Assembly (NCBI GenBank): GCA_038884715.1
Contig: JAWABG010000001.1
Coordinates: 38,287 to 102,286 of the forward strand
Source: Candidatus Woesearchaeota archaeon
Lineage (GTDB): Archaea > Nanobdellota > Nanobdellia > Woesearchaeales > UBA9642
Length of the DNA stretch: 64,000 nt
Reading direction: 5' to 3'
This document shows, piece after piece, positions 3,099-18,537 of this stretch (the stretch's first letter is position 1; every line of letters starts with the position of its first letter). The notes under the pieces were generated by a model that ran no database searches, was not told where the DNA came from, and worked only from the letters and a program-made list of their open reading frames with translations. Made by a program: the position numbers and the translations under genes.

Positions 3099-6000
3099 TC
3101 ACCACCAACAAAAACCAGATGGGAATTCAAATCGACACAATTTAACTTCCTGATTTATTGGACATTCAAGATTCACGTTTGGATTCTGAATATGGCTCGC
3201 AAGTCTAATTATATCACCTATTTCAACATTACCACTATTATCAACATCACAAACAGAGATGTTATCAGGAAGACCTGTCCCTCGCTCAATATAATTAATT
3301 ATTGTGCTAACATCAGAAAGCTCTATAAAACCATTGTTGTTGCAATCACCACATTTAGGCAGATTAACCCTACCACAAGTCGGAGCTGGGCTTTCGGGAA
3401 CAAAAAAATAATCTCTCAAATATTGATAATCTGCTTGATTCAATATTCCGTCACCATTTACATCAGCAACCCACCAATAATTATGAGCAGAACCTCCAGC
3501 CAGATATGCTTGTAAAAACACAAGATCAGCACCATTTACTACTCCATCCATCCCATTCACATCTCCACAAACCGGATTTGTAGGTAATGTTGCCAAACAT
3601 TGTGGTAAAGGACCATCGTGATTAAAATAATTATTGATATAAATAAAGTCTAGTGAATTTACATATCCTTGAGTCCCACCATCTCCGTTAACATCACAAA
3701 CCCATAAAGGATCACATCCAGGACCATTATTATTTAGATAATTTAATAAACAAAAAGTATCAGCCATATTAAACTGTTTATCATTATTGCAATCACCACA
3801 AAGATTATCTCCCTGTCTTATATACGCAATTGTGCAATCAAGATTGCACCCACTACCACTAACCCCGTTATTTGTTCCTTCATCACAATCTTCAAATCCT
3901 GTCTGAACATATCCATCGCCACATATTGCATTATTGCAATTTACACATGCATCATTATTATAATTATTGCCATCGTCACACAACTCATATCCCTGCCAGA
4001 TATAACCATCTCCACAGGTTGGTAAGTTACAATTATTCAAACAACTATCTGAATTATCTGTGTTTCCATCATCACAGAATTCTCCCGGCTCAATAACGCC
4101 ATTACCACAAACAGGTGCGTGGCAAACAGGTATTTTATTAACCATCCAATCCACATCTGATTGATCTACAACACCATCTGCATAATTAACATCCATTGAT
4201 GACCAGATATTATAAACCGGACCGCCTTTAAGGTAATTAGCTGTACATGTTACATCCCCGAAATCAAATATGCCATTTCCATTACAATCACCACAAATCA
4301 TTGACTGGGGGTGTTGCCTGTTACAGTTAATTGAAGACATTCCATTTTTTATTACATATTGCACATCTATACGATTCACATGTGGTTCTTGAATTGTTCC
4401 GTCACCATTAAAATCACATGTCCAAAGATCCTGACAATGGTATATCCCACCACGACCATTAAGATAATTTGTTAGACACGTTACATCATTTCCGTTTATA
4501 ATCCCATCTCTGTTGCAATCACCACATATTGAAGGAGCAATATAATTTGGATTTTGCTGGCAATTATTGTAACATGCATCATTATTATTCTGATTCCCAT
4601 CATCGCAAGCTTCACCGGCTTCAACAATACCATTACCACAAACAGGATAAACACACTCTGATGGTTCCTCTATACAAATCCATCCTGCGTCAACAACACA
4701 GAAAGCGCTACAACCATCTCCATTTACTTTATTGCCATCATCACAAAATTCACCCACCTCAATATTGCCGTTCCCACAAACTGGTTCCTCTGTGCATAAT
4801 TCAGTGCAACCATCTCCGTCATTTGTGTTTCCATCATCACATTGCTCTCCTAAATCTCTAATGCCATTTCCACATATTGGATTGTTGCATATAGGTTTAG
4901 GATAGCCAGGCGTTCTTTTGAAATACTCAACTAAATAAGAGACATCTCCTGTATTTACAATTCCGTCTTTATTAACATCACATATCCACCAAGGAGCACA
5001 AAACGGTTGATTGCCTGCCCCATTAATATATGACATTATACAATTAACATCATTACTTTTAAGTCCATCTGCTCTGTTGCAATCGCCGCATTCGAGAGAT
5101 GGAGGTATATCTGTGTTACACCAGAGAGAAACCTCACCACGAAAATATTTTAAAAAATGCGAGTAATCTAAACGTGTAACTAATCTATCACCGTTAACAT
5201 CAAAATTTGAAAATGGAGAAGTTGGTGGTTGTTCACCATTTAAATAATAATTAAGATAATACATGTCCTGTGAATTTACTCCATCTCTCTTATTAACATC
5301 ACCGCAAGGAATAGATTGTCCTTGAGGAATTGGCTCTTTTTTACACATCCAACATCCATCTCCTTCTTTTGTATTACCATCATCACATTCTTCATTACCT
5401 TCAAGTATTGCATTTCCACAAAACTGTTTTGATAAAATGATAATCTCATTCTTGCAAAATTGATCACAACCATCTCCGTTTACTTTATTGCCATCATCAC
5501 AAAATTCACCCACCTCAATATTACCATTTCCACAATAACCTAGTGAAGGATTTGTTGGAGTTTTTGATGGAGGATCAGTATATGATGAAAGAGTTGGCTG
5601 AATAATTTTAGTACAAGAAGTTGGTGATTCATAATCACATTCCCATCCTTCTTCAGGAATACAAAATTCGCTGCATCCATCACCAGATTCTATATTGCCG
5701 TCATCACATTTTTCAGTGTCGGGGTCTAATTTTGCATTACCACATAATGACGGTTGTAGACCACAGCAACTAATTGATTTTGAGAATCCATACCAATAGT
5801 CTTTTAATAAAGGATAATCTTCCCATGTTAATTTGCCATCTCCATTTATATCCAGAATACAAGTTTGTTTTAGTGTATTCATACCGCTTGTGAGATACTC
5901 TGCAAATAAATCAATATCTGTTTCATCTAGTTTGCCGTTTTGATCAAAATCGCCACAAACAATATGTGCTTTTAAAGTTTCTGTTGCAAAACCAATATAA

Positions 6001-6158
6001 GAAGTCGATTTGTCTATTTTTGTGTCTGTTTCTGTTGATCTTTGTGTTAGAGTTTTGTTTGTCATTAAAACAATAATAGTTATACTCACTATTACTACTA
6101 TGGCTACAATTGTAACGATATATATTGAACTAATAGAATGAATTAGTCGTTTATCCAT
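3099..6158 (-). CDS. Membrane-anchored, repeat-rich surface protein. At least 7 dockerin-like (EF-hand Ca-binding) modules alternate with 9 Myxococcus-type cysteine-rich repeats.
   Basis: N-terminal TM: MDKRLIHSISSIYIVTIVAIVVIVSITIIVLM. Nine copies of CGNGxIExGExCDDGNxxxGDGCxxxC (TIGR02232-type Myxococcus cysteine-rich repeat), e.g. CGNGNIEVGEFCDDGNKVNGDGCDQFC. These are interleaved with paired DxNxDGxxNxxDxxxLxxY segments, e.g. CGDCNRDGIINGNDVTCLTNYLNG...CDFNGDGTIQEPHVNRIDVQYVIKNG. SD-like GTGAGGTG lies 7 nt upstream of the ATG. Confidence 0.7.
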   Translation of the reverse strand: MDKRLIHSISSIYIVTIVAIVVIVSITIIVLMTNKTLTQRSTETDTKIDKSTSYIGFATETLKAHIVCGDFDQNGKLDETDIDLFAEYLTSGMNTLKQTCILDINGDGKLTWEDYPLLKDYWYGFSKSISCCGLQPSLCGNAKLDPDTEKCDDGNIESGDGCSEFCIPEEGWECDYESPTSCTKIIQPTLSSYTDPPSKTPTNPSLGYCGNGNIEVGEFCDDGNKVNGDGCDQFCKNEIIILSKQFCGNAILEGNEECDDGNTKEGDGCWMCKKEPIPQGQSIPCGDVNKRDGVNSQDMYYLNYYLNGEQPPTSPFSNFDVNGDRLVTRLDYSHFLKYFRGEVSLWCNTDIPPSLECGDCNRADGLKSNDVNCIMSYINGAGNQPFCAPWWICDVNKDGIVNTGDVSYLVEYFKRTPGYPKPICNNPICGNGIRDLGEQCDDGNTNDGDGCTELCTEEPVCGNGNIEVGEFCDDGNKVNGDGCSAFCVVDAGWICIEEPSECVYPVCGNGIVEAGEACDDGNQNNNDACYNNCQQNPNYIAPSICGDCNRDGIINGNDVTCLTNYLNGRGGIYHCQDLWTCDFNGDGTIQEPHVNRIDVQYVIKNGMSSINCNRQHPQSMICGDCNGNGIFDFGDVTCTANYLKGGPVYNIWSSMDVNYADGVVDQSDVDWMVNKIPVCHAPVCGNGVIEPGEFCDDGNTDNSDSCLNNCNLPTCGDGYIWQGYELCDDGNNYNNDACVNCNNAICGDGYVQTGFEDCDEGTNNGVSGSGCNLDCTIAYIRQGDNLCGDCNNDKQFNMADTFCLLNYLNNNGPGCDPLWVCDVNGDGGTQGYVNSLDFIYINNYFNHDGPLPQCLATLPTNPVCGDVNGMDGVVNGADLVFLQAYLAGGSAHNYWWVADVNGDGILNQADYQYLRDYFFVPESPAPTCGRVNLPKCGDCNNNGFIELSDVSTIINYIERGTGLPDNISVCDVDNSGNVEIGDIIRLASHIQNPNVNLECPINQEVKLCRFEFPSGFCWW

Positions 6159-6786: not shown

Positions 6787-7914
6787 TTATAAAAAATCAT
6801 CATCAATATTTTCTAATTCTTCAAGATCTAACTCTGCAAAGCTTATATCTGAAACTGGCGTTTTCTCATTGTCTTTTAACAATTTTTTTTGATCAGTGTA
6901 TTCATCTGTATCTTTAATTTCTTTTTGAGGTTTACTAATCCTAATATTCTCAATCTCTTTTTCTGGATCCGGATTTAAATCTACATAATTAACAACTAAC
7001 TCATATCTCTCAAAAACTGCGTTCTTATTAACTCTTCCCCTTATCTTTATTATTGTTCCTAATAATTCATTCTTATATTGTTCAAAACCCTGAATGTTTT
7101 CCCTAAATTCGATAAGCTCGGTATCAGAAAGATTAAATAATCTTTGAACCTGATCCCTAAAAAAGACAGTTCTTATATTTGAGGTTCCATCATCTAAATA
7201 AATACTAATTAAATAGCTATAATCAGGTATTACTGCGCCATGAGTATTACAAACAAAAACATCATCCTTTAATTTTATTCTTTTTTTGCAACTAGGGCAT
7301 ATTTCAAAAAATCTTGGTTCAAAAACTTGTACTATTGTTCCGAGAACCTCAACATTTGAGTCATTTTCGTTTAAATCCTTTATTAGTTTTCTTTCTATAA
7401 TCGAATATCCTGCAGTCATAACTGTCTCCCCGCCAGGATTAATAAGAATCTTGCTTTGATCATTTATATGTAATTCACTTCTGCCATTATTATCTCTTAC
7501 ATACCCTGAGATAATTTTAATAACGTCTGTTTCCTTTAAACCTTTAATATTATCAACAGCCTTATTCCAAAAAACAGCACGTATTGTTCCTGTCTCATCA
7601 CCAATCAAGGCACTTGTCATTTGACCTGATCTTCCATTTGTCTGGAATTGCTTAGTATCATATATCCTTATTACTTTCGCTGTTATATCAACATTTCTCA
7701 TCCCTGGAAGAACGTTCTTTATTTTTAATGCAGTTGATGTATCAAATAGTTTAATTCCTAATTCATTAGCAACAATATGTGCTGCTCCTTCTTCTGAAAC
7801 CAAACCCGATAAGGATTCAAGTTTTTGATTAATTTTATCCTTAATTTCTTTTTCAGAAAGACTTGTTTTTTCTCGTATTCTTCTTATAACTTCAGATACA
7901 GGAATATTAAACAT
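6787..7914 (-). CDS. rpa: Replication protein A (archaeal RPA/SSB). OB-fold ssDNA-binding protein with a C4 zinc ribbon.
   Basis: N-terminal EEGAAHIVANELGI motif typical of archaeal RPA. OB-fold segment VDITAKVIRIYDTKQF...ALIGDETGTIRAVFW. Zinc ribbon CPSCKKRIKL...CNTHGAV. Second OB fold. Acidic C-terminal tail ...EELENIDDDFL. Confidence 0.8.
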   Translation of the reverse strand: MFNIPVSEVIRRIREKTSLSEKEIKDKINQKLESLSGLVSEEGAAHIVANELGIKLFDTSTALKIKNVLPGMRNVDITAKVIRIYDTKQFQTNGRSGQMTSALIGDETGTIRAVFWNKAVDNIKGLKETDVIKIISGYVRDNNGRSELHINDQSKILINPGGETVMTAGYSIIERKLIKDLNENDSNVEVLGTIVQVFEPRFFEICPSCKKRIKLKDDVFVCNTHGAVIPDYSYLISIYLDDGTSNIRTVFFRDQVQRLFNLSDTELIEFRENIQGFEQYKNELLGTIIKIRGRVNKNAVFERYELVVNYVDLNPDPEKEIENIRISKPQKEIKDTDEYTDQKKLLKDNEKTPVSDISFAELDLEELENIDDDFL

Positions 7915-8092: not shown

Positions 8093-8956
8093 TTATGGTA
8101 TATAGATTGTTTTTATATACTCATTATTATTCTCATTTGATTCGCTAATTCTATATGTTGAATCCACATATCCATAATAATTATATGTTCCTGGATTAAT
8201 ATATGCATTCACAAAAGCAGTATATTCCTGGCCCGGATTCAGCATTGGTATATAACTATTAGGCAAGCTATAACTTCCTCCAGTACCATTTATGTTTACT
8301 TTCAAATAAAAATACGTGCCAGTAGTAGCATTACCTTTATTTTTTATAAGATTTGCAACAACGAGAGGTGAGTTATTTCCTGATTGATTAGTTATATAAG
8401 AAGCATTAATATAAGAAGCATTAAGTATTACTAAGTCAGGCATACTAGGCGTCTGGTTGACACACACACCATTAGCACAGCCATAAGTACAGTTCATGAC
8501 AAATTGTTGAGTTATCTGGCTACCACACGCCCCTCTTAAACAAAAATAATCAGTGAAATTACGATGTACACTGTTACCATAACAGTAATTAGGACTATAA
8601 CTATCTGTTCCACAAGCATATAACCCGTTTAGTTCTCTTGTAGAATTACAAAAATATTCATTTACTGTCTCGTTATTTTGACAATAATCGGTGTGATTAT
8701 ACCCCACACCATTATAATAACCAAATGTTGTTCCTTGAATTTCAATTCTTATGCCATTGTCGGTATCTTCACAGCTATCTGTTTGTGGTGCGATTTTAGA
8801 TGAGGTAACTGTGCCTTGGCCAGCCATTCCAATATAATTATCAGATAATGTCTTAGAAGCATTATTTACATTAATAACCATTACAACTAATCCGATTATT
8901 GCTACACACGCAACAATAGCAATTATATATAGAACTCCCATATTTTCTTTATCCAA
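8093..8956 (-). CDS. Secreted or membrane-anchored protein with a C-terminal CARDB domain. The likely start is TTG at 8954-8956 (MDKENMGVLYII...); the ORF-track start at 9004 is probably too long.
   Basis: CARDB signature at the C-terminus: NKGNATTG...LNPGQEYTAFVNAYINPGTYNYYGYVD...ISESNENNNEY (ExNExNN). The leader AAAATGATGTGAGGTGT is shared with gene 3099..6158 and places the TTG-GAT-AAA (M-D-K) start in the same position. Hydrophobic N-terminal anchor. Confidence 0.6.
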   Translation of the reverse strand: MDKENMGVLYIIAIVACVAIIGLVVMVINVNNASKTLSDNYIGMAGQGTVTSSKIAPQTDSCEDTDNGIRIEIQGTTFGYYNGVGYNHTDYCQNNETVNEYFCNSTRELNGLYACGTDSYSPNYCYGNSVHRNFTDYFCLRGACGSQITQQFVMNCTYGCANGVCVNQTPSMPDLVILNASYINASYITNQSGNNSPLVVANLIKNKGNATTGTYFYLKVNINGTGGSYSLPNSYIPMLNPGQEYTAFVNAYINPGTYNYYGYVDSTYRISESNENNNEYIKTIYIP

Positions 8957-9147
8957 CGTAACACACCTCACATCATTTTTAATATTTATTAATAATTTCA
9001 ACAAAAAAATATATTTTATTAAATTCTTAAATTACTTATTTAAAAAGTTTTTCTTTTTATATTTATTGGTATATATATTGTTAAACATTATTTGGTACAT
9101 AAATACATAACAATTAAAAAATTAATATTTAAATATTCAATAAAAAT

Positions 9148-11214
9148 TTAAGAGGAACTAAAAACAAAATAATTATTTCCGGGAACTAATTCACTGAATT
9201 TTATTTCATTGTTATTTTTATCAACTGCTATTACTGCAAAATATTTTTTTGTAACAGGAATCTGAATATAGGTAGTTTTTAGATTACTAATCGGATCATT
9301 ATATATTACATCAAGATGATAATAATTATCATTAAAATGCTCAGATACCCAAGGAATCCCAAATCGTCTAACAACGCCTCCAGACTGCATAAAATCATTC
9401 TTGTCTGTATTTACAAAATTTTGATCAGAATAATATATATTATATGCTACAACGTCTTGAGTGTTCGTAGGATTATCACTCCACTGTAATTTGTAAACAT
9501 CTGCTGAGACATTTATAACAGACAAACCAATAACAGCTAAAGGAGCTATATTATCATATAGGTTAATTGCAAATTTTATATTAACTGGTTTTAGAACAGT
9601 GTTCATATTATCATCAAGCTGAGGAATCTCATCATTTGTTTTTAGGCACAGCCTGAATTTTTGTTTTTGATAAATACACTCCTTATAATCAACACCGTTT
9701 TGGTCATAGTCTGAAAAAAACAATTTATTGTTGTTAATGTTTGGATTAATATTTTCTATTTTTGTAAAATTTTTGCTGTAATTGCTTATATAAAGAAATA
9801 TTTCCTCTTTATTTGGCGTTGATATATATGTTCTGTAAATTCTTTTATTAGGATTTATTGTGTCAAAACCATCATCACCAATAACTGATTTAATATATCC
9901 ATCGTCATCATATTTTATTGAATAAATCTCAGGAATGTTTGTAGATTGATTTATAGAAAAACTATAGTAATTTATTATTGGTTTTGTCATCTGAACCAAA
10001 ACTTTATCATCTTGGATTGAAAACTTGAATTCAAATTCTCCCTTAAGTTTCTTATTTTTTATTTCATCGTTGGAATACAAATTTGTGAGCTTGCATGCAC
10101 AATCTGTTACATTTACCTCTGAGCATTCTTGTAATCTTTCCATTGCATCATAAAAAACCTTAAAAGGACCTTCTTCACAATCATAAGTCATTTTCATATT
10201 TGGATTATTTATGTTAAAATCAGATACAGCTTTATCAAGGCAAGATTCGAGATTATCAACACAGTGCGTCTTAACATTGGACGTAAATGTTTTTATCAAC
10301 TCATAAACACTTAAATTATAGTTTACAAATACATTAAAATGAGGCATTACTGTGTATACTCCTGAAATTCCAGAGCCTTTCTTCATAGTGTCTACATAAA
10401 TACCGTTTTTTACTTCTCCTCCTGCAGCAAGGCATATTTGGTTAAAATAATTCAGAATAGTCTCAGGATAGGCAGCACCCATTCCTGCATCAATGCACTT
10501 ATTTTTACTGCCACTTTCAGGGCTTGTGTACAAGCAGCGCACATAATCTCCCCTGCATACACTGGGTGAATCAAGGTAATTCTCTCTGCAGGCTTCAATC
10601 ATCGCATCTGTTAGTGTTTTGCCTACTTGAACTTTTTCAGCAGCACTTATTGCTGTTCGTTCACCCCTATTATATGCAAATAATGCCAAAATTAAAGTAT
10701 CTTTTGGACTGAGATTTTTTTTAGAAATTGAATCAAATTTTCTCTTAAAATTATGTATGCCTGCATCAATCTGACTTGCCACTGTAACGCATGGTTGGTC
10801 TCTTGTGCAAGTATCATCTACTTGAAGAATTCCTCTATAATTAGAAATATAGCCGCACTTGCTTTCCTGCATTGCAATAGCCATTATCATTATGGGGTCA
10901 ATTCCTCTTTCAGTTATTCCATTCTGCACAGAATACTGCATAAATAAGTCTATATGATTATAACAGCCATCGATATATTGCATATTCGAACTCGCTAATC
11001 TGCTTAAGTCTGGATTATCACAATAAACCATTTGGCTTTTGTCATTATCTCCGCCAACTCCAATTACAAAACCCGAGATACTTAAGATTGGATTTAGTTC
11101 CGAAATTGAAGCATTTAAATTTTTTAATTTTAAAACTAAGAATAAAAATAAAATAAATAACAAAAATAAAGAAAAATATAAAAGGCTTTGTTTTGAAACT
11201 TTTTTATTTTTCAT
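9148..11214 (-). CDS. Secreted lytic-transglycosylase-like protein (GH23/SLT domain) with a C-terminal FN3-like region.
   Basis: All three family-1 SLT motifs appear in order: AMQESKC (catalytic E-S), GILQV (GLMQ-like) and FAYNRG (AYNxG). N-terminal signal/anchor: MKNKKVSKQSLLYFSLFLLFILFLFLVL. C-terminal YKLQWSDNPTNTQDVVAYNIYYSD is FN3-like. Confidence 0.6.
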   Translation of the reverse strand: MKNKKVSKQSLLYFSLFLLFILFLFLVLKLKNLNASISELNPILSISGFVIGVGGDNDKSQMVYCDNPDLSRLASSNMQYIDGCYNHIDLFMQYSVQNGITERGIDPIMIMAIAMQESKCGYISNYRGILQVDDTCTRDQPCVTVASQIDAGIHNFKRKFDSISKKNLSPKDTLILALFAYNRGERTAISAAEKVQVGKTLTDAMIEACRENYLDSPSVCRGDYVRCLYTSPESGSKNKCIDAGMGAAYPETILNYFNQICLAAGGEVKNGIYVDTMKKGSGISGVYTVMPHFNVFVNYNLSVYELIKTFTSNVKTHCVDNLESCLDKAVSDFNINNPNMKMTYDCEEGPFKVFYDAMERLQECSEVNVTDCACKLTNLYSNDEIKNKKLKGEFEFKFSIQDDKVLVQMTKPIINYYSFSINQSTNIPEIYSIKYDDDGYIKSVIGDDGFDTINPNKRIYRTYISTPNKEEIFLYISNYSKNFTKIENINPNINNNKLFFSDYDQNGVDYKECIYQKQKFRLCLKTNDEIPQLDDNMNTVLKPVNIKFAINLYDNIAPLAVIGLSVINVSADVYKLQWSDNPTNTQDVVAYNIYYSDQNFVNTDKNDFMQSGGVVRRFGIPWVSEHFNDNYYHLDVIYNDPISNLKTTYIQIPVTKKYFAVIAVDKNNNEIKFSELVPGNNYFVFSSS

Positions 11215-11247
11215 TTTATTATTTTTTTAATGTTTTTGTGTTATTTA

Positions 11248-12405
11248 TTATTTCTTCATTAAATATGATGTTGTACATTTTCCTGCTGCTTTTGCCATCT
11301 GTGCTCTGTCTGAGTTATATTCAAAATGCCACCATTCTCCAAAAACATTTTTACTTTCACTACCCAACCTAATCCACCCGTTCTCGCACATCAATCTCTG
11401 CAACAAATCGTGATTTTTTTGTTGTTCTTGAGAATAAAAAAACGGGTAAGGCTTATGTAGCCCGGTATCTAATTCGTGCCCGTTAAAATATATTTTTGAT
11501 ACATCGATGGCTTGTCCTTGTGCATGTCTTGCGGTTGCACATGTTGCACTTGCTGCACCAGACCCTTTTTGTTTTTTTAATTCTTCTTGTTCATGTAGAG
11601 TTCTATAGGCATCACTTATCAATAATGTATACCTCTGTTTTCTTAAATTTTCGGCAGTTGTTTTTAATCCATCGGCGGCAGATTGTGCAAGCATGCATCT
11701 AATTCCTGGTTTACAAGTAATTCCTTCAATATTGTCAATTCCAACTATCTGTTCGTTTGTGCAGCTTGAAGCAGTAATTTTCGTGTCTATTATACTGCTA
11801 GCAACACCTCCAATACTAAAGATTATAGGCTGTATTGCGAGTCCAATAACATTTAATTTTTTTGTGCCTTGCTCTTGTTTTATTATAAATTTATAATTTT
11901 CTGTAGGGATGTTCACATTTGGATACTTTGAAAGATAATTATTTAATTCGTTATTTATATACTGCTTAAAGCTCTCATCATAATCTGGAAAACAGTTATC
12001 TGCTTCATTGCTGTATAAAGGATAAATAAATTGACCGCAAGGATAATTAGGAGTCATTCCTCCTTCGTCAATTGTATTCATTAAAAAGAAATAGCCTCCT
12101 GTTTCGCCAAGGCGAGAGATTGCTTTCAAGACGGATAATTTCGCAGATTGATCAATAAATAACAATGCGTATTCTCCTTCTTGATATGTTTTAAAGATAA
12201 TATATTCCTTATCGCCGATTTTCTCACCACTATCCGCTTTAAAATTTTTGCTAAATAAAATGAATATTATTATTAGACTTGAAACAATAATAAACATAAT
12301 TCCCAAAACAAAAAGTTGTGATTTTTTATCTGTCCTTTTCATTTTAATATGGATATTACTTATTGAATGGTTTTTTCGTACAGTAAAAAAAATAGTGTTT
12401 GACAA
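11248..12405 (-). CDS. Peptidase M15 family zinc peptidase (VanY / L-Ala-D-Glu peptidase-like peptidoglycan hydrolase) with a pilin-like N-terminal anchor.
   Basis: Zn-binding motifs ARHAQGQAIDV (SxHxxGxAxD) and GEWWHFEY (ExxH). N-terminus ...KMKRTDKKSQLFVLGIMFIIVSSLIIIFILF is class III signal-peptide-like. Confidence 0.7.
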   Translation of the reverse strand: MSNTIFFTVRKNHSISNIHIKMKRTDKKSQLFVLGIMFIIVSSLIIIFILFSKNFKADSGEKIGDKEYIIFKTYQEGEYALLFIDQSAKLSVLKAISRLGETGGYFFLMNTIDEGGMTPNYPCGQFIYPLYSNEADNCFPDYDESFKQYINNELNNYLSKYPNVNIPTENYKFIIKQEQGTKKLNVIGLAIQPIIFSIGGVASSIIDTKITASSCTNEQIVGIDNIEGITCKPGIRCMLAQSAADGLKTTAENLRKQRYTLLISDAYRTLHEQEELKKQKGSGAASATCATARHAQGQAIDVSKIYFNGHELDTGLHKPYPFFYSQEQQKNHDLLQRLMCENGWIRLGSESKNVFGEWWHFEYNSDRAQMAKAAGKCTTSYLMKK

Positions 12406-12423
12406 TTTTATGATTAGTTATTT

Positions 12424-12900
12424 CTACGATGAAGATAACGCCACTTGCACTGCTTTTATCTCGCCATTTAACAGGGGAAGATAAACAATTTTGTAAGGAA
12501 GACCAAAAGGTATTTGATTGCTCGTTTTTTTCGGAAAACAAATTATCGCAAAATATTTATTTGGAGAAAGTAGTGCAGTCTGTCGTAATTCCCAATCCGA
12601 GCATTTTTCATCCATATAATACTTAATCTTGTCGTCAGGGCTGTTCATCAACTTCGGATACATACCAAGATAACTCCCGAATGATGTGTCTTCATTTACA
12701 CTATCTCTGAACAAATTTATTGTTTCTCTGTCTTGAGACAATTCTCCAAATTTTTGTTGATAATTTGTCGTTTTTTGTTTAGCACTAAGATAAAAAAGGA
12801 AAATAAGTAATACAATAATAATTATAAAAATTATGATTGAAACAACATCAATCATCACGAAATCTCCTTTTTTATTTTTTAATAATTTACTTACTTTCAT
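12424..12900 (-). CDS. Hypothetical small surface protein with a class III (pilin-like) signal peptide.
   Basis: N-terminus MKVSKLLKNKKGDFVMIDVVSIIIFIIIIVLLIFLF (KKG then a hydrophobic helix). No recognisable domain. Confidence 0.4.
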   Translation of the reverse strand: MKVSKLLKNKKGDFVMIDVVSIIIFIIIIVLLIFLFYLSAKQKTTNYQQKFGELSQDRETINLFRDSVNEDTSFGSYLGMYPKLMNSPDDKIKYYMDEKCSDWELRQTALLSPNKYFAIICFPKKTSNQIPFGLPYKIVYLPLLNGEIKAVQVALSSS

Positions 12901-12993
12901 TTTTATTTTTTATATTTTTTAATTATTATTTATTTTAATTAAATGTTATATTAATTATATTTTTAAATATTTATCAATTATATTTTTTTATGA

Positions 12994-13569
12994 TTATTTT
13001 TCACTAATTAATTTTATATTAAGTATTCCTGAATTAAAAATATTATTCTCAATATATAATACAGAAACATTCTTTTCTATAACGTTAAAATCATTTTTGA
13101 ATACATTTGATTGAACTTCAATACTCTTATAATAATACTGATTATTGTATATAGGACCGAATTGTTTATTATTCGTAGAATCGGTTAATTCTAACTTTAC
13201 AGCCATAACTCTTACATTTCTAAAATTTAATGATTTTTCAATATTACTTCTAGTAAACTTTTTTATGTCAATAATACCAGGATATACCCTTCCAGTATTT
13301 TCATCAACGTAATTTATAATGTTAGGGGAATAATATATCTTGTTAAATATAACATCCATATGTAATGATGAAACATCTAGATTATTTACTACAAAAAAAA
13401 CAATTATCCAAATAAAAATTCCGATTGCAAAAATCAAGAAAAATATCCTAAATATATTTAGTATTGGCTCTTTTAGTGCTGCCCGCTTATTTATTTTTTT
13501 ATTTATTTTATTTTTTATTATTCTACTAATCTTTATTCTATTTTTATTTTCAAATATTTGAAATTTCAT
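12994..13569 (-). CDS. Hypothetical membrane-anchored protein.
   Basis: Single TM (ILNIFRIFFLIFAIGIFIWIIVFFVV) after a basic N-terminus. A 4-nt gap to the upstream gene suggests an operon. Confidence 0.35.
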   Translation of the reverse strand: MKFQIFENKNRIKISRIIKNKINKKINKRAALKEPILNIFRIFFLIFAIGIFIWIIVFFVVNNLDVSSLHMDVIFNKIYYSPNIINYVDENTGRVYPGIIDIKKFTRSNIEKSLNFRNVRVMAVKLELTDSTNNKQFGPIYNNQYYYKSIEVQSNVFKNDFNVIEKNVSVLYIENNIFNSGILNIKLISEK

Positions 13570-13573
13570 TTGA

Positions 13574-14410
13574 TTATTTGTAATTATTTTTTATTACTTC
13601 TACGAGTTTTCTTACAAAATCATTCTTGTTTTCGAATATGCCAGAAGGAAAATTAACTGGAATTAAAATCATAATTGCTGTTTTTTCGGAGCTTATCTGA
13701 CTAAATTCTTGGATGTTTTGCTCTGCAAATTGGGTGTTAAAAAAATTATTAAAGGTGTATTTTAATTCACAAGCAAGGTTTTTACTCATAAAGGATCCTG
13801 GCGGATAAAAAATACTTAGTTTCTCGTCGGGAGAATTCTTAACATAAATTATTAAATTCGGGTTGTTTATGTCTTTAACAAACCCTGTGTTTTCTAAATT
13901 ATTTTCAATACTGTTTGATAAATAAAATAGATTTTGATCAAGTGTAATTATTGAAAAATTTGTTTCTGATACAGATTTTAATGATTTATCACATAATGGT
14001 TGTTGAATTCCTATTCCTAAAACACCGCTCGCATATTCATACCTAAACGCTTTGCTACTGGTTTCTGATTCAATTATTTTAATATTTATATCATTAGCAA
14101 AAGGATAATTTGCATAAACACCTCTTTCTTGCTTTGGAAAATCATAAACAAAAATTTCAGATGACTTTAATGAAACCAAAAAATCTTTTTCGCGTCTGGG
14201 AGAATAATAGACAAAGCCAATTTTTCCTGGTGAAGCTTCAAGGGAATCAATAACCAATGCATTATCCCTGGCAAAATAATTTCTCCAATAGATTGTATTA
14301 TCTGATTTTTGATAAACAAATGCAAAAACAAGCAAGCCTATCCCCATAAGTATCGCGAATTGATTAAAGATATTCCATAATTTTTCTTCATCGCCCCTTT
14401 TATTAAACAT
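13574..14410 (-). CDS. Hypothetical surface protein with a class III-like signal peptide.
   Basis: N-terminus MFNKRGDEEKLWNIFNQFAILMGIGLLVFAFVY (KRGD motif, as in two neighbouring genes). Confidence 0.4.
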   Translation of the reverse strand: MFNKRGDEEKLWNIFNQFAILMGIGLLVFAFVYQKSDNTIYWRNYFARDNALVIDSLEASPGKIGFVYYSPRREKDFLVSLKSSEIFVYDFPKQERGVYANYPFANDINIKIIESETSSKAFRYEYASGVLGIGIQQPLCDKSLKSVSETNFSIITLDQNLFYLSNSIENNLENTGFVKDINNPNLIIYVKNSPDEKLSIFYPPGSFMSKNLACELKYTFNNFFNTQFAEQNIQEFSQISSEKTAIMILIPVNFPSGIFENKNDFVRKLVEVIKNNYK

Positions 14411-14485
14411 AAGAATTAATCTAAGAGAAGATATTTATATAGTTTTAGGTAAAAAATATTTTAAAAAACTAGTTTATATACACTC

Positions 14486-15766
14486 CTATTTACACACTCC
14501 TATTGGCAGGATTTTATTTACTGTTTTATCCCGGCCGTCAGGATTATATCTCTGACTCTCTCCAGAATATAGCTCCATAGAATAAACACAATTTTTTCCA
14601 TTACAATTTTTTCCGAGCTGAGCTAAGGATGAACCTGTACTTTTTCTTAAAGTATATTCTCCACAATCCTTAGTTAAATCAATCTCAACAATCTTATAAC
14701 TAACAGTGTTTTCTAATAATGGTCCACCAAAGACATCATCTCCTATCTGCCTAATTCTAGTAAATGTTTTTCCTTCCTCTAAATCATAAAGTGTGTTATA
14801 GAGCGGAAAGTTGTCTCCAACACCCAAACATTTACCTGTATAAACACCTATGTTTGAATATGTTAAAGGATCATCGGGATGAGAAGAGTATCTAATAACT
14901 TTTTCTGCAAACATACACACTTGATCATTATTGCATTTTGTTCCAAGACAACCAATCATATAAACTGGCAAATCTTCAACTGCAATACCCCCATATCCTG
15001 AAAATGAAATATCATACCCCAATATTCCACAAGGGACTTCTGTGTTTGAACAAGGTCTTTGCTGAGCCAAAATAGTGTCAAGATCGCTAAACTTATTTAT
15101 TGGCTGAGCATAAATATTATAACTATTTCCAATCTTTACCTTAATAAAAAAAACATTGTTAAAATCAGTTGATTTATCAGTTGTTCCTAATTGAAAGAAA
15201 TTTTTAAAAGTCTCTTTATTTAATATAAACACAGGATTTTGAGATTTTGTATATTCAACTTTCATCTTTCCGTCCTTTTCTACAAGGTTTGTTGATACAT
15301 AAACCAAGCCCATGAAATCTACACTCTCAAAAGTTCCCTTATTTAGTGATTTGCAGAACAAGACCTTTGTTTTTTTGTACAAACAAAGACAAGGATTATC
15401 ATATTCTGTATTACTCTCTCCACACTTTTCTGGTTTTTTAAATATATTTTTTCCAATAATTATTTCATCTGATTGATCACCAAAACCTAATATAGAATAA
15501 TCATCGGGAAGATATATTGTTGAGTAAGCATAGTCATTATCTGTTGAATGTAATAATAATCCTTCAAGAATTAATGATGCGGTATTAAAATTCTGTATTA
15601 CTGCTTTATTTAAATCTTTGTTTCCCGAAAATAAATTATATATTAATGGAACAAAAATTGTTAGCAGAATTATAACAACAAGTATTGCAAATATTGCCTC
15701 CACGAGCTGTCCTGTTGTTAAATCTCCCTTTTTTGCTCTTGCAATTTTTTTCCCAATCATAAGCAT
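14486..15766 (-). CDS. Hypothetical Cys-containing surface protein with a pilin-like N-terminus.
   Basis: N-terminus ...ARAKKGDLTTGQLVEAIFAILVVIILLTIFVPLIY. The KKGD motif plus E and a hydrophobic helix resembles prepilin leaders. Confidence 0.4.
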   Translation of the reverse strand: MLMIGKKIARAKKGDLTTGQLVEAIFAILVVIILLTIFVPLIYNLFSGNKDLNKAVIQNFNTASLILEGLLLHSTDNDYAYSTIYLPDDYSILGFGDQSDEIIIGKNIFKKPEKCGESNTEYDNPCLCLYKKTKVLFCKSLNKGTFESVDFMGLVYVSTNLVEKDGKMKVEYTKSQNPVFILNKETFKNFFQLGTTDKSTDFNNVFFIKVKIGNSYNIYAQPINKFSDLDTILAQQRPCSNTEVPCGILGYDISFSGYGGIAVEDLPVYMIGCLGTKCNNDQVCMFAEKVIRYSSHPDDPLTYSNIGVYTGKCLGVGDNFPLYNTLYDLEEGKTFTRIRQIGDDVFGGPLLENTVSYKIVEIDLTKDCGEYTLRKSTGSSLAQLGKNCNGKNCVYSMELYSGESQRYNPDGRDKTVNKILPIGVCK

Positions 15767-15829
15767 AATGAATAATTATAAAGAAATCCTTATTTAAATG
15801 TTACTCTTATTTACATTTATCATGAATAG

Positions 15830-16081
15830 TTAGCTAAATGCTCGCATACAACATACTTTGTTTTCACCGCAGTTTTTTTCATCAAGTGGCTGGTCTCCTG
15901 GCTGGCAATTACTTGTACTGCTGCAATAAAGAGCTTGGCCTCCTATTTCTCCTTCACATTTATTTACGTGCATTGAAGGTTTGATGATTAAAAAATATAT
16001 TAATGCAGCTGCGACAATTATTACTAGAACTACAATTATAATTTCTACAATATGACCTCCCGCTTGTGATTTATTATTCAT
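15830..16081 (-). CDS. Mini-pilin-like protein (83 aa) with a C-terminal six-cysteine knot; paralog 3 of 3.
   Basis: MNNKSQAGGHIVEIIIVVLVIIVAAALIYFLII, then C-x10-C-x5-C-x11-C-x5-CC (CEGEIGGQALYCSSTSNCQPGDQPLDEKNCGENKVCC). Confidence 0.5.
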   Translation of the reverse strand: MNNKSQAGGHIVEIIIVVLVIIVAAALIYFLIIKPSMHVNKCEGEIGGQALYCSSTSNCQPGDQPLDEKNCGENKVCCMRAFS

Positions 16082-16335
16082 TTTTATTTATTTTAAAATT
16101 ACTATTTAATAAAAATTAATTAATTATTAATTAAATCTTATAATAAATTAATAAATATTACTTTTTGTGTTTTTCCAATGATTATTTTTTTCTAATAATT
16201 ATTTTATTGTTTATATATATTAATTAATATACAAAAAATATTATTAATTATTATTTATTTAATATACAACATTAATTAATAGTTTGTTTATCATGATTTA
16301 GTATAAGTTTATGAATTAATATTTTTTGTTATATT

Positions 16336-17631
16336 TTATGTCGCGGCAATTCTTTTTCTTTCTGTTTTTCCTTGCCCCAAAACATTCTCCACATATAAAC
16401 AAATATTATTATTTTCATCATTTGCGGGACGAGTAATTGTTAATTCAGATGTTGCTGTATACTTGCCCCTATTATCTTTTGTTATTGGAGGACAATCGAT
16501 AGTATCATTGGTAATAATATAATACCATTTTTGGGTATTACAAGCATAGTCTGGGCTTTTTGCTTCACATATTAGTTTTATTTCATATTCTCCTGAACTC
16601 TTTTTAAAAATCTCGATTCGAGGAGTGGGATATGTGTCAACAAAAAATATTGGAATTGAAATACTTGCAGCCCAATAATTTGGGTCTATAGTACAGGCAT
16701 TTCCTTTTTGACAATCTTCTTTGTAAACAATTGACTGTAAGCTTAGTTCTTTATTTATCTCTTCATACTTTGGAGTATAAGTAAAAATTAATTTTGTATT
16801 TGTGCATTCAAGATTCTCTGTTCCAACTAAATTACCTTCTTGATTAAGCCATCTTTTATTTACTACATCATAAATATAACCAACACACCTTCTCTTTTTA
16901 TCAGAGTTTATATAGAACTCAATGTTTAATGTCTGACCAATGATTGCATTAAGTGATTGACTATAACCAATATCTTTGTTATTTACTTTTATAGCAATTG
17001 TTGCTCTTGCTTTATCGCTTGAGCGAGAATTTGAAGGGTTGTTTCTATTGTTTGATAGTTCGTTAACATCATTCGGATAATCATATTTTGGAATAATAAC
17101 AATACTTATTGTTTCATCATTATTCTTTATTACAACTACCTTAATATCAGTAACTGAATCATCATTTATATCAGTTTCTAATTCTCCTTTTTTATTAATA
17201 AGAGGTATTGTGTACTGTTTTGGCTCTGTTTGAATTGTTATCTTTACATAATTATCAGTCATTTCATCAATGCTTATAGAATGAGTTACTCCATTTATTA
17301 CAAAAGTTTTTGATTCCCCGACATGCAATGAAAAACTTTGCTCTTCATTTTTAATGCGCCTGCAGCAATATTGCCCAAGAATTTCTTTGTTAGTATTATC
17401 CTTGCATAAAATAATTCCTGATTTAGTTATCATGTATGTATCATCACATTTTTCATAAGTACAATAACCTCCAAAGGTCTCACAAGAATTTATTTTTGTT
17501 GATGTTTTCCAATAATAAAGGTAAATAATGAGCGAAGAAATAACAATAAGTATTAAAACAATTATTAATACCTTTACAAGTCCAACTCCGCTTGTATCAT
17601 CTGCACGTTTGTTAAATTTAAAGTTAATCAT
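16336..17631 (-). CDS. Surface protein (431 aa): pilin-like anchor, then the same 6-Cys module, then a large extracellular domain.
   Basis: MINFKFNKRADDTSGVGLVKVLIIVLILIVISSLIIYLYYW, then CETFGGYCTYEKCDDTYMITKSGIILCKDNTNKEILGQYCC, which has the same C...C...C...C...CC framework as the mini-pilins. Confidence 0.45.
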   Translation of the reverse strand: MINFKFNKRADDTSGVGLVKVLIIVLILIVISSLIIYLYYWKTSTKINSCETFGGYCTYEKCDDTYMITKSGIILCKDNTNKEILGQYCCRRIKNEEQSFSLHVGESKTFVINGVTHSISIDEMTDNYVKITIQTEPKQYTIPLINKKGELETDINDDSVTDIKVVVIKNNDETISIVIIPKYDYPNDVNELSNNRNNPSNSRSSDKARATIAIKVNNKDIGYSQSLNAIIGQTLNIEFYINSDKKRRCVGYIYDVVNKRWLNQEGNLVGTENLECTNTKLIFTYTPKYEEINKELSLQSIVYKEDCQKGNACTIDPNYWAASISIPIFFVDTYPTPRIEIFKKSSGEYEIKLICEAKSPDYACNTQKWYYIITNDTIDCPPITKDNRGKYTATSELTITRPANDENNNICLYVENVLGQGKTERKRIAAT

Positions 17632-17695
17632 TTTATAAAACCAAAAAATTAAGATTTTTAATTTAAGAAAAAAAAAATAAATTTATAACTGACTG

Positions 17696-17941
17696 CTAAC
17701 TGGTTAATGGACAACAAACAAATCCTTTAGCACATCCTTTTTCTCCTGAATTGCCTAATGGATTATTACAAGAACCAATCGGCAGACATTGTCCATTATA
17801 ATTATCTACACATTCTAGTTTTCCCCTGAATAATCCTAACCTGCTCACTAATAAATATGCTATGATTGCTAAAACAATTAATACAATTACTGCAATGATT
17901 ATAACATTCATTGACATTTCAATTCCTTTTTTGTTTTTCAT
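17696..17941 (-). CDS. Mini-pilin-like protein (81 aa) with a C-terminal six-cysteine knot; paralog 2.
   Basis: MKNKKGIEMSMNVIIIAVIVLIVLAIIAYLLV (KKG then I-E, class III leader), then CVDNYNGQCLPIGSCNNPLGNSGEKGCAKGFVCC. GAGGT SD lies upstream. Confidence 0.55.
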   Translation of the reverse strand: MKNKKGIEMSMNVIIIAVIVLIVLAIIAYLLVSRLGLFRGKLECVDNYNGQCLPIGSCNNPLGNSGEKGCAKGFVCCPLTS

Positions 17942-17986
17942 TGTTAACCTCTAAAAGATTATTATACAACTTATCACATAATTTAA

Positions 17987-18229
17987 CTATACCACTTTGC
18001 AGCATATTTTATTAGCATCACAGTCATTAAATGTTCCTCTAACCTGTTCATTTGTACATTCTTCCGGTGTCTTACATAACCCCCCATTCGCAACGCAGCT
18101 CTTCGTTGTTCCTTGATTCACATTTGCACCTGCTCTTAATACAAGAACGGCTAAAATTACTAGAACAATAAGTGCTATCGCCGCAATTATAATAACATTC
18201 ATTGATAATTCAGCACCTTTTTTTTCCAT
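17987..18229 (-). CDS. Mini-pilin-like protein (80 aa) with a C-terminal six-cysteine knot; paralog 1.
   Basis: MEKKGAELSMNVIIIAAIALIVLVILAVLVL is nearly identical to the 17696 leader. It is followed by CVANGGLCKTPEECTNEQVRGTFNDCDANKICC (C-x5-C-x5-C-x10-C-x5-CC). GAGGTGA SD lies upstream. Confidence 0.55.
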   Translation of the reverse strand: MEKKGAELSMNVIIIAAIALIVLVILAVLVLRAGANVNQGTTKSCVANGGLCKTPEECTNEQVRGTFNDCDANKICCKVV

Positions 18230-18537
18230 ATTTTCACCTCAACCCAAGATACACGTTTTAATAATGAAAATGTAATTATTTATAAAACAAGTATAAAACT
18301 CTCTACTTACTACCAGTCAAAGGTATATATAAAGTTTTTGATATTTTTAAATTTTGATGTGTTTAAAATATGTTTGAAAGTTCGTATTTATTTATTATAG
18401 TATATTATCTATTTTATAATATTAATTAATTATTAATTATAATTTATTAAGTTATAATATTTACAATGTTGTGTTTTTTATTGTTTGTATTTACCTCATT
18501 AGTTATATTTTTAATATTGGGTTAGCTTGTTCTCAGT

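Follow-up and report, generated by a model that had tools for sequence, protein, structure and literature searches.

The window analysed here – a 64-kb stretch of DNA from a MAG of Candidatus Woesearchaeota, a tiny archaeon of symbiotic type – carries on its minus strand two adjacent genes, only 33 nt apart, for relatives of cell wall hydrolases. Protein 1 (9148..11214; 688 aa) matches an NCBI Woesearchaeota hypothetical protein at 100% identity, and protein 2 (11248..12342; 364 aa) is named by NCBI as a D-alanyl-D-alanine carboxypeptidase family protein. Together, they close, at its 3′ end, a cluster of ~13 kb that is conserved in a distant Nanoarchaeota MAG. The parts of the two proteins and the cluster genes up to 21497 described below all lie on this strand.

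Protein 1 comprises an N-terminal signal or anchor, a lysozyme-like catalytic domain of the GH23 family (SLT/goose-lysozyme superfamily; residues ~56–274; 10393..11049), a Cys-rich middle module (residues ~279–400; 10015..10380), a lineage-specific linker and an FN3-like C-terminal domain (residues ~506–688; 9151..9699). The original prediction had assigned this ORF the motifs AMQESKC, GILQV and AYNRG, and both the coordinates and the motifs proved right: the codon of the catalytic Glu117 (10864–10866) lies in IAMQESKC (E117/S118), GILQVD (10816–10833) in RGILQVDD (G128, Q131, D133) and YNRG (10663–10674) in LFAYNRGE (Y181–G184). E117 and YNRG are invariant. The family comprises 171 cluster representatives, and 153 proteins were retrieved from it. 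The motif matches of both proteins exceed chance, as model and profile searches show. On its own, protein 1 stays below the Pfam SLT threshold (15.8 versus a cut-off of 21.3; E 0.011), but a 34-member family profile matches goose lysozyme among GH23 structures (E 6e-7), 25 of the 34 homologous domains match Pfam SLT, and the catalytic domain is predicted to adopt the GH23 fold. The earlier label of a family-1 lytic transglycosylase was sound as to GH23 but too specific, as the profile is closest to goose-type lysozymes; the chemistry may be that of either a hydrolase or a lytic transglycosylase, because the Asp following QV – present in the window protein – occurs in only 19 of the 34 family members.

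With characterised GH23 enzymes (GEWL, MltF, MltC, MltE and Slt70, as well as the Tn916 Orf14-type structures 4hpe and 4fdy), protein 1 shares the Glu-Ser, G-[LI]-[ML]-Q and Y-N-x-G motifs, and with goose lysozyme also the ‘QVD’ sequence (Asp97 position). It differs from them in its archaeal host, in an identity to the solved bacterial enzymes of below 20%, in a further, disulfide-rich elaboration that has six conserved cysteines and in the fusion of the catalytic domain to the Cys-rich and FN3-like modules. The middle module, with six invariant cysteines, occurs in 90 of the 153 proteins retrieved, and its profile found no relative among solved structures. The C-terminal module (profile A9, searched against the PDB) best matches the FN3 domain of a chitinase (6bt9; 1.2e-3), followed by the FN3 domains of gp130 and fibronectin, and the protein P0157 shows a faint Pfam fn3 match. 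Both modules are probably spacer or binding parts.

Protein 2 consists of a class III-like leader, a conserved N-module and an M15/LAS metallopeptidase domain of the VanY-LdcB-VanX type (11251..11745; Pfam, NCBIfam and profile A6). A minus-strand ORF does span 11248..12405, as first proposed, but translation almost certainly starts at the ATG at 12342 rather than at the TTG at 12405, since both an ortholog and the NCBI model start at this ATG; residue numbers refer to the resulting 364-aa form. The two predicted zinc-binding motifs are in place, with H273 (11524–11526) and D280 (11503–11505) in ARHAQGQAIDV and E336 (11335–11337) and H339 (11326–11328) in GEWWHFEY. The protein exceeds the Pfam gathering scores for both Peptidase_M15 (28.7 versus 27) and VanY (28.1 versus 25), matches the NCBIfam DdpX-like model PRK10178 at 6e-11 and, through profile A6, finds LdcB/YodJ (4ox3; 6.2e-5) and Ply500 (2vo9; 0.048) in the PDB with the H..D motif aligned; an AF2 model built from only 2 sequences reached a pLDDT of 36. 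The likeness to known M15/LAS enzymes (VanY, LdcB, VanX/DdpX and the L-Ala-D-Glu peptidase Ply500), with which protein 2 shares H-x6-D and E-x-x-H, is at the level of the family only and points to no one specificity among DD- or LD-carboxypeptidase, dipeptidase and endopeptidase; here, moreover, the domain is preceded by an archaeal N-module of ~180 residues that begins with a prepilin-like leader. While the window copy retains all four catalytic and metal-binding residues, the L001 ortholog has lost every one of them and is a pseudo-enzyme, so the cluster does not depend on peptidase activity in all lineages.

The leader of protein 2, MKRTDKKS/QLFVLGIMFIIVSSLIIIFILF (12253..12342; the slash marks the putative prepilin-peptidase site, 12316–12324), consists of basic residues, a Ser at –1 and a Gln at +1, followed by a hydrophobic segment. 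Behind it lies the N-module (residues ~31–190; 11773..12252; ‘YQEGEkALLyLDxSAK ... CG...LWN...C.PD’), for which we propose the role of a stalk or pilin-like carrier domain and whose profile found no relative among solved structures. Leader and N-module together – the first ~180 residues – head at least 42 multidomain proteins among the 153 of the family, as well as P0157, and the N-module also precedes SLT or M23 peptidase domains in relatives. In 37 of the 42 N-module relatives, [KR][GAS]x stands directly before the hydrophobic segment, mostly as KK[GA]Q (–1: Ala in 18, Gly in 16, Ser in 3; +1: Gln in 23), so that KKS/Q of protein 2, where Ser takes the place of Gly or Ala at –1, is a variant of a KK[GA]/Q consensus. 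Substrates of prepilin peptidases are defined by just such a [KR][GAS] pair next to the hydrophobic segment (PMC6098224, PMC3387779). A strict FlaFind-type pattern fits only 6 of the 42 leaders. Judged from this pattern of conservation, a pilin-type leader on protein 2 is credible.

The same cannot be said of protein 1, to which the original prediction had also given such a leader (of an ‘SKQ’ type, alongside KKSQ). Its N-terminus (11125..11214) is a basic stretch followed by a ~20-residue hydrophobic segment, in which hydrophobicity peaks at residue 11 (3.04); no [KR][GAS] stands ahead of the segment. Moreover, ‘SKQ’ is not conserved in orthologs: P0002 has SKW, the L001 ortholog begins with MKSPSKIITLS, and the signal of P0005 is generic. 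A pilin-type leader was accordingly rejected for protein 1, in which a generic signal peptide or anchor is predicted.

Upstream of the pair, three genes with KKG (12424–12900), KRA (12994–13569) and KRG (13574–14410) leaders have homologs, in the same order, in the distant Nanoarchaeota MAG, and a fourth, with a KKG leader (14486–15766), has a positional counterpart there (452–454 aa) of no detectable similarity; a Pfam search assigned none of the four to a family. Next come three small Cys-rich pilin-like genes (80–83 aa, 6 Cys), with the leaders NKS/Q (15830–16081), KKG/IEMSMN (17696–17941) and KKG/AELSMN (17987–18229), which flank a gene for a 431-aa KRA-leader protein (16336–17631). The small genes have homologs in L010 (MDKKAVELSVNVIII...), and at a third locus, L006, a similar gene lies directly upstream of a GH23 gene. 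Further cluster genes are one with a homolog in L002 only (18538–19053), one for a 53-aa protein (19103–19264) and a paralogous pair with homologs in L010 (19583–20536 and 20568–21497). In the stretches 11248–24406 and 32103–34943, [KR][KR][GAS] directly precedes the hydrophobic segment in 13 of 17 proteins, while the other membrane proteins of the window lack the motif, save for one WKS match in an M48 peptidase (55880–56797). Four small pilin-like ORFs were found in addition to the proteins counted here.

How far this amounts to an island of class III signal-peptide proteins depends on the stringency applied. At the level of the motif, the earlier description stands; by the strict FlaFind-type pattern, only one island protein passes, and curated pilin and class III models matched none of the window’s pilin-like proteins. 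Likewise, the suggestion of display on, or export through, a pilus-like apparatus gains from the leader of protein 2 but not from its surroundings, as searches for a type IV filament ATPase, platform protein or prepilin peptidase found none in the 64-kb window, nor in the 14.7-kb syntenic locus L010. These absences are what one would expect if both hydrolases were plain Sec-secreted or membrane-anchored proteins, with KK[GAS]Q as an uncleaved signal anchor obeying the positive-inside rule, no filament, and neighbours that are unrelated surface proteins. The generic leader of protein 1, the absence of matches to curated pilin models and the mostly failing strict pattern fit this explanation too, as does a survey of archaeal peptidoglycan hydrolases that gave only Sec and Tat signals (PMC12352652). 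It would leave unexplained, however, why positions –1 (Gly or Ala) and +1 (Gln) are strongly conserved across 37 of 42 divergent proteins, why the motif recurs in 13 of 17 neighbouring genes, and why ~80-aa pilin-like genes accompany the hydrolases in two distant genomes, with a similar small gene at the third GH23 locus. We consider it unlikely, albeit the most serious of the alternatives.

Two observations support a functional coupling of proteins 1 and 2: three genomes keep their genes adjacent, and in one relative the two are naturally fused. The genes are also neighbours in L002 and in the distant L001/L010, whose GH23 domain shares 34% identity. In the fusion protein P0009, a protein 2-like part (residues 2–348; E 1e-51) with intact H/D/E/H residues precedes the GH23 and middle modules.

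An extracellular location is predicted for both proteins from the hydrophobic segment at either N-terminus and from their cysteine content (18 in protein 1, 8 in protein 2). The claim that both act on bacterial peptidoglycan fits their homology to enzymes that do so (GH23 and M15/LAS), and the activity itself may be presumed from it. Could the substrate instead be chitin or other GlcNAc-rich glycans, the pseudomurein of a methanogen host or the cell’s own envelope (e.g. for the passage of appendages), with the M15 domain serving mainly for binding? The resemblance of the FN3-like module to those of chitinases and the catalytically dead protein 2 ortholog point that way. Against this, a GH23 domain combined with a D-Ala-specific M15 or an M23 peptidase, adjacent or in a single polypeptide, is a hallmark of murein degraders, and the window copy retains every catalytic residue. 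Pseudomurein has β-1,3 linkages and only L-amino acids, and to our knowledge archaea of this group do not make murein. A target other than bacterial murein thus seems improbable.

The pair is encoded by a genuine archaeal (Woesearchaeota) genome and is not contamination. Archaeal markers lie on either side of it – the window contains RPA, PolD DP1/DP2, SecY, a ribosomal-protein operon and primase, with RPA 1.2 kb downstream of the hydrolases – and NCBI assigns both proteins to Candidatus Woesearchaeota, in agreement with the archaeal host first proposed. A recent bacterial or viral import without an integrated archaeal role, be it an endolysin-like cassette or a piece of bacterial DNA binned by mistake, might be suggested by the overwhelmingly bacterial or phage-borne distribution of both catalytic domain families and by a slightly higher GC content at 10–12 kb (0.33 versus 0.25–0.27 in the flanks), yet it is very improbable given the flanking archaeal core genes on the same contig, the synteny with RPA kept in L001 and L005, a family of 171 cluster representatives whose named members are all archaeal, the <20% identity to solved bacterial enzymes and searches of phage and IMG/VR collections that found no relatives.

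On balance, we favour, with some confidence, the interpretation that the pair forms an extracellular two-enzyme peptidoglycan-cutting kit at the end of a conserved Woesearchaeota/Nanoarchaeota (DPANN) cell-surface cluster, with protein 2 held in a filament or in the membrane. Sec would carry both proteins across the membrane, protein 1 by means of an ordinary signal or anchor. A prepilin peptidase would cut the short basic leader off protein 2 before Gln9, and the retained helix would either hold the protein in the membrane or insert into a type IV filament-like structure built of the small pilin-like proteins encoded upstream. With Glu117 as the general acid, the GH23 domain would cut the MurNAc-GlcNAc backbone, while the M15 zinc peptidase would trim or cleave stem peptides containing D-amino acids. 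Brought up to the wall of a neighbouring or host bacterium, the hydrolases could help the cell to attach, to breach the wall locally or to feed on its fragments.

Several elements of this proposal have precedents. Archaeal peptidoglycan hydrolases have been experimentally shown to kill bacteria, and such genes are noted there as prominent in Nanoarchaeota (PMC12352652). Like our pair, Woldo and Danwoldo of Halogranum salarium are archaeal, secreted and directed at bacterial murein, but they combine catalytic with peptidoglycan-binding domains and use Sec/Tat signals, whereas here we find no recognised peptidoglycan-binding domain and a class III-like leader (PMC12352652). For the latter, the closest parallels are the sugar-binding proteins of the Sulfolobus bindosome, which have class III signals without being filament subunits (PMC3387779), and modular type IV pilins of bacteria, such as Streptococcus sanguinis PilB (PMC8179133). 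In these, too, a functional globular module follows a prepilin-type leader and a hydrophobic helix, and pilin-like genes are encoded alongside; the present case, in which processing and assembly are predicted, differs in that the cargo is a cell wall hydrolase and no assembly ATPase or platform protein is seen nearby. A pilin-type delivery module for a wall hydrolase is thus plausible.

Another close parallel is found in the murein lytic-transglycosylase-domain proteins of Woesearchaeota and Pacearchaeota, proposed in two publications to attack or attach to bacteria (PMC8204110, PMC9723730), the latter describing GH23 genes of ‘vampiristic’ Woesearchaeota (Vigneron et al. 2022). As described there, these proteins share with protein 1 the phylum, the SLT/GH23 domain, a multidomain architecture, an extracellular location and a proposed role in binding or degrading bacterial walls; for fam00969, the likeness refers to its description. 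The searchable text of both papers contains no mention of a pilin-type leader (0 occurrences of ‘pili’ and ‘pilin’), an M15 partner, a fusion or an RPA-side cluster. Murein hydrolases in Woesearchaeota have thus already been published, and the present pair adds to them; what appears to be unreported so far is the pilin-type leader, together with the conserved cluster in which the hydrolase genes lie.

Protein 1 is encoded where the original prediction had placed it (9148-11214, minus strand, 688 residues), and all the motifs quoted for it – IAMQESKC with E117, RGILQVDD and LFAYNRGE – are present. Taken alone, it scores 15.8 bits (E 0.011) against the Pfam SLT model (PF01464), and its isolated GH23 domain 19.3 bits, both under the gathering cut-off of 21.3; as a single-sequence query against the PDB it found no relevant match, and phmmer with protein 1 or protein 2 against the PDB gave nothing useful. 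However, when its homologous domains and a family profile are used, a match to GH23 enzymes does emerge. The family was assembled with protein 1 as the query of an exhaustive HMMER search through 1.84 billion cluster representatives, which yielded 171 proteins at E<=1e-3 (87 at E<=1e-10); word-indexed homolog searches gave 1-3 relatives per protein. In an alignment of the N-terminal domain (residues 56-290) from 34 members, the residues E117, G128, Y181, N182, R183 and G184 and the cysteines C84, C209, C240 and C261 are invariant, and S118 (32 of 34) and two more cysteines nearly so. The E-S motif, with E117 and S118, is thus accompanied by the G-[LI]-[ML]-Q motif (G128 in 34 of 34, Q131 in 30 of 34) and by [AGS]-Y-N-x-G (Y181, N182 and G184, each in 34 of 34).

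Compared with known structures, the 34-member profile matches goose-type lysozymes best (6.3e-7), followed by MltC and MltF (about 1e-3) and Slt70 (0.03), and it places E117 at the position of the catalytic E73 of goose lysozyme. Singly, 25 of the 34 homologous domains match Pfam SLT at E<=0.01, the best at 1.4e-11. An AlphaFold2 (AF2) model of the domain built on the same alignment is confident (pLDDT 87.5, pTM 0.86), and the top Foldseek matches to this lysozyme-like, alpha-helical fold are exclusively GH23 enzymes. With such a fold predicted and the catalytic glutamate conserved – the two features whose absence was to count against it – the GH23 assignment stands, at 12-21% identity to solved bacterial enzymes. 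The narrower label of 'family-1 lytic transglycosylase' goes beyond the data, since the closest sequence match is to g-type lysozymes and the protein carries a 'QVD' whose Asp (D133, the equivalent of goose lysozyme D97) is found in just 19 of the 34 members.

The gene for protein 2, previously delimited as 11248-12405, does lie there on the minus strand, but its start is almost certainly the ATG at 12342 (giving 364 residues), the start found both in NCBI's gene model and in the closest ortholog. The motifs reported for it were found again, ARHAQGQAIDV contributing H273 and D280 and GEWWHFEY contributing E336 and H339, so that the zinc ligands H-x6-D ... H and the catalytic Glu of E-x-x-H are all present. 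Two Pfam models are matched above their cut-offs (PF01427 Peptidase_M15, 28.7 bits against 27; PF02557 VanY, 28.1 against 25), with the matches falling in the C-terminal 165 residues. The NCBIfam D-Ala-D-Ala dipeptidase model PRK10178 is matched at E 6e-11, yet its score of 42 is far under the equivalog cut-off of 176, which makes protein 2 a member of the family rather than a DdpX ortholog. A profile of the M15 domain from three intact copies reaches LdcB/YodJ at 6.2e-5 and the L-Ala-D-Glu peptidase of phage Ply500 at 0.048 with H-x6-D aligned, the H..D motif of protein 2 falling on SEH..D of these enzymes. An AF2 run on protein 2 from a two-sequence alignment, too shallow for the purpose, gave a pLDDT of 36.4. 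The enzyme identities of proteins 1 and 2 carry high confidence, and both enzymes would probably act extracellularly on bacterial peptidoglycan.

Three of the four available orthologs of protein 2 retain the M15 catalytic residues, which are intact in the window copy, in its close ortholog P0004 and in P0009, a fusion protein. In the Nanoarchaeota ortholog P0156 (L001 4636-5736, corresponding to L010 10001-11077; the two loci represent a distant Nanoarchaeota MAG, assembly GCA_041305085.1 for L001), all four are replaced (H to F, D to S, E to N and H to Q), RHAQGQAID having become PFVTGGAIS and GEWWHFEY having become GNWWQFEY. P0156 retains the N-terminal module described below, the overall fold-determining residues and its place in the gene cluster, and is likely to be a pseudo-enzyme. 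The loss of all four residues implies that this component does its work in some lineages with no peptidase activity, and its role there may be one of binding or structure.

The first ~180 residues of protein 2, a leader and a domain that we call the N-module, are widely shared: phmmer places them at the N-terminus of P0157 and of no fewer than 42 among the 153 proteins that the search with protein 1 had retrieved. The N-module precedes SLT domains in P0018 and P0026, M23 peptidases in P0014 and P0015, and other modules in further relatives; P0085, which combines it with M23, comes from a Nanoarchaeota archaeon and is named as a DD-metalloendopeptidase family protein. The profile of the N-module found no solved relative. 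P0157 itself (567 residues; L007-L009), seen on six contigs from ENA, JGI and Logan samples, has a faintly FN3-like C-terminus and no catalytic domain among its precomputed Pfam hits; it follows small unannotated genes near a Cdc45/RecJ-like DHH protein, in another archaeal setting.

N-module relatives typically begin with M..NKK[GA]Q[IV]F, followed by about 20 hydrophobic residues. In 37 of the 42 proteins, [KR][GAS] stands right before the hydrophobic segment, with Ala (18), Gly (16) or Ser (3) at -1 and Gln at +1 in 23, and the five exceptions appear N-terminally truncated or slightly shifted. Archaeal prepilin-peptidase substrates are defined by processing N-terminal to the hydrophobic domain and by a basic residue at -2 (PMC6098224, PMC3387779). 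The pilin-like leader claimed for protein 2 is credible, K7 and S8 supplying the basic -2 and small -1 residues before Q9 and 22 hydrophobic residues; this KKS/QLF, with Ser at -1, is a minority variant of the consensus. A strict FlaFind-type pattern fits 6 of the 42 N-module relatives and one protein of the island, the run of genes with pilin-like N-termini at whose 3' end the pair lies. Pilus-type processing of protein 2 is plausible.

The 'SKQ-type' pilin leader attributed to protein 1 is unsupported: its N-terminus consists of a basic stretch, in which the lysines are not followed by a small residue and [KR][GAS] is therefore absent, and a hydrophobic segment of ~20 residues, and its orthologs start with unrelated, generic leaders. 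Behind the GH23 domain lies a Cys-rich module of about 120 residues with six invariant cysteines; 90 of the 153 retrieved proteins have it, and its profile found no solved relative. The linker behind it is shared with the closest ortholog alone. The C-terminal module is weakly FN3-like (chitinase FN3, 1.2e-3 in a profile search).

The two genes are adjacent on the same strand, 33 nt apart. They are adjacent again in the close relative L002 and in the distant Nanoarchaeota MAG (L001/L010), where replication factor A (RPA) follows as well and the GH23 domain is 34% identical; at a further locus, L005, a GH23 gene is followed by RPA. A locus scan with a six-sequence GH23 alignment returned one genome locus and four metagenome loci. 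Synteny with L010 extends over ~13 kb and takes in homologs of 20568-21497, 19583-20536, two 80-residue genes (17987-18229 and 17696-17941), 13574-14410, 12994-13569, 12424-12900 and proteins 2 and 1, together with a gene for 452 residues that is the counterpart of 14486-15766 by position alone, sequence similarity being undetectable. Their adjacency and the extended synteny mark the two genes as a unit within a larger conserved cluster. In the window, protein 1 and RPA are separated by a gene for a CARDB-domain protein (8093-9004, minus strand; E 8e-10; 12 Cys), which is partly conserved in L002 and missing at that position in L001.

The pair also occurs as a single protein. P0009 (1015 residues, from a 22.9-kb Logan contig) is a natural fusion: its residues 2-348 resemble protein 2 (32% identity, E 1e-51) and retain all four catalytic residues, and GH23 and Cys-rich middle modules follow. 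Taken with the other relatives and the cluster, it indicates a family architecture of prepilin-like leader and N-module, catalytic cassette or cassettes, Cys-rich module and FN3-like module; as read from the sequences, this architecture is divided between two genes in the window. Proteins 2 and 1 are encoded in one frame, with a stop codon and 33 nt between them in the window (11215-11247) and 99 nt in L001 (5737-5835), which could suggest read-through from one into the other; this we reject, as protein 1 and its orthologs have a start and a hydrophobic leader of their own and the pair is out of frame across a 65-nt gap in L002. The shared frame is probably a coincidence or the trace of a split fused ancestor.

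The archaeal setting of the pair is secure. Each of the two proteins has a 100% identical counterpart on a 129,970-bp contig of a Candidatus Woesearchaeota MAG (locus tags QXG00_*). Archaeal core genes lie on either side – RPA (6787-7914) on one, and SecY (36836-38218), ribosomal protein L3 (51002-52000), PolD DP2 (59476-62994) and PolD DP1 (62994-63989) on the other – and GC is about 0.25-0.36 throughout, so that contamination or mis-binning is excluded for practical purposes. Judged by their translations, the ORFs at 38-51 kb look like the remainder of a ribosomal-protein operon. A further archaeal core gene, for a 494-residue primase (52460-53944, minus strand), joins small- and large-subunit domains in one protein, a PriS-PriL fusion of the kind described for Nanoarchaeum. 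Almost all plausible genes of the window lie on the minus strand, and nearly all 2-kb bins show a negative GC skew; tRNA and Rfam scans of the whole 64 kb were empty. The 1019-residue protein of 3099-6158 (minus strand), a surface protein with dockerin repeats, has an N-terminal anchor, seven dockerin type I domains (E 7e-60), eight DUF4215 Cys-rich repeats and EF-hand-like matches, and no cohesin partner was seen in the window.

A phage or viral source for the enzymes was rejected for lack of relatives in tblastn searches of 50,697 phage records, in IMG/VR and in PHROGs. Named family members are archaeal without exception (Woesearchaeota, Nanoarchaeota or simply 'archaeon'). The catalytic domains surely go back to bacteria in a deep sense, but they have long resided and diversified in this archaeal lineage and are no recent import.

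Whether the enzymes are carried on a filament is a more speculative matter. The proposed island of class III-like leaders holds up as far as the motif goes: KKS, KKG, KRG, KRA or KKA stands right before the hydrophobic segment in 13 of 17 proteins at 11.2-24.4 and 32.1-34.9 kb, and membrane proteins elsewhere in the window are free of it, bar one WKS match in the M48 peptidase of 55880-56797. It does not extend to curated Pfam pilin or class III models, none of which matched an island protein. Four extra small ORFs in the island were absent from the gene calls at a 60-residue cut-off. Three of them, of 80-83 residues with six Cys each, whose leaders read KKG/AELSMNVIII, KKG/IEMSMNVIII and NKS/QAGG, resemble pilin precursors. 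The small pilin-like ORFs have homologs at the same position in L010, and at a third locus, L006, a similar small gene (MKKAQLSMNTIVV...) sits directly upstream of the GH23 gene; no pilin-like neighbours are seen at L003, on a contig of high GC that carries A-type ATPase genes.

The island and its surroundings also encode three very large Cys-rich predicted surface proteins (24743-28135, 28215-31808 and 32103-34943, all on the minus strand) of 946-1197 residues with 31, 76 and 38 Cys, respectively, in which Pfam recognises next to nothing; a bacterial TSP3 repeat and a TM segment at the C-terminus mark the first, and a textbook KRG/Q leader the last. In the small cluster protein of 12424-12900 (minus strand), the N-terminal hydrophobic segment (residues 22-53) weakly matches a 45-residue PHROG 'transglycosylase' family (E 1.5e-4), most likely a transmembrane-helix artefact.

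A PilB/FlaI-type ATPase, a PilC/FlaJ-type platform protein and a PibD/EppA peptidase were all missing from the 42 window proteins scanned, a set outside which most ORFs of the 38-51 kb block fall, and no such ATPase, platform protein or prepilin peptidase was found among the called genes of L010. These absences, the lack of matches to curated pilin models and the poor fit to the strict FlaFind-type pattern speak against a filament. The Sulfolobus bindosome (PMC3387779) and bacterial modular pilins (PMC8179133) are earlier examples of functional proteins behind prepilin-type leaders. Display on a filament is speculative. Its fullest form – a type IV filament-like surface structure of Woesearchaeota/Nanoarchaeota whose minor or tip subunits would be modular pilins with interchangeable M15, M23 and SLT/GH23 cassettes, serving as a pilus-borne 'drill' through the peptidoglycan of a bacterial host, with the window pair as a split subunit – strikes us as a rather unlikely proposition.

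The core observation of murein hydrolases in a woesearchaeon is not new in kind, as it has been published for Woesearchaeota and Pacearchaeota: according to PMC8204110 and PMC9723730 (the latter also citing the earlier AR20 genome), both groups encode large extracellular proteins with murein-transglycosylase domains, possibly for attaching to or attacking bacteria. One DPANN family, fam00969 of Castelle et al. 2021, is described as large, extracellular, equipped with a murein-like LT domain and restricted to Woesearchaeota and Pacearchaeota (PMC8204110), a description that the family of protein 1 fits. A 2025 study reports experiments in which archaeal peptidoglycan hydrolases kill bacteria, and describes their genes as prominent and diverse in Nanoarchaeota, with Sec and Tat as the only signals (PMC12352652). 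Text searches of PMC8204110, PMC9723730 and PMC12352652 found no mention of pilins or class III signals for these hydrolases, and a 2026 preprint that deals with type IV filament systems of archaea does not mention peptidoglycan hydrolases. Within the literature searched, four features look new: a carrier module with a prepilin-type leader that relatives share, the pairing with an M15 enzyme, the fusion of the two, and the conservation of the cluster.

What the locus adds is a concrete, testable hypothesis of delivery, in which M15, M23 or SLT cassettes sit, across at least 42 proteins, behind one conserved N-module that starts with a prepilin-type leader and is encoded alongside small pilin-like genes in a cluster kept between distant genomes. 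Leader, N-module and catalytic domains are defined units for tests of cleavage, filament incorporation and murein lysis; the N-module can serve as an annotation marker for such effectors where the catalytic domain has diverged too far for Pfam, and the enzymes are possibly of interest as divergent lysins. To our knowledge, the hosts of most Woesearchaeota are not known. A conserved, surface-exposed kit for cutting peptidoglycan points to bacterial partners or prey, an idea already raised by genome surveys. If the pilus-borne 'drill' were real, it would be the first archaeal filament known for enzyme delivery and would count as direct molecular evidence for a life on bacteria, not archaea, in this group of DPANN archaea.
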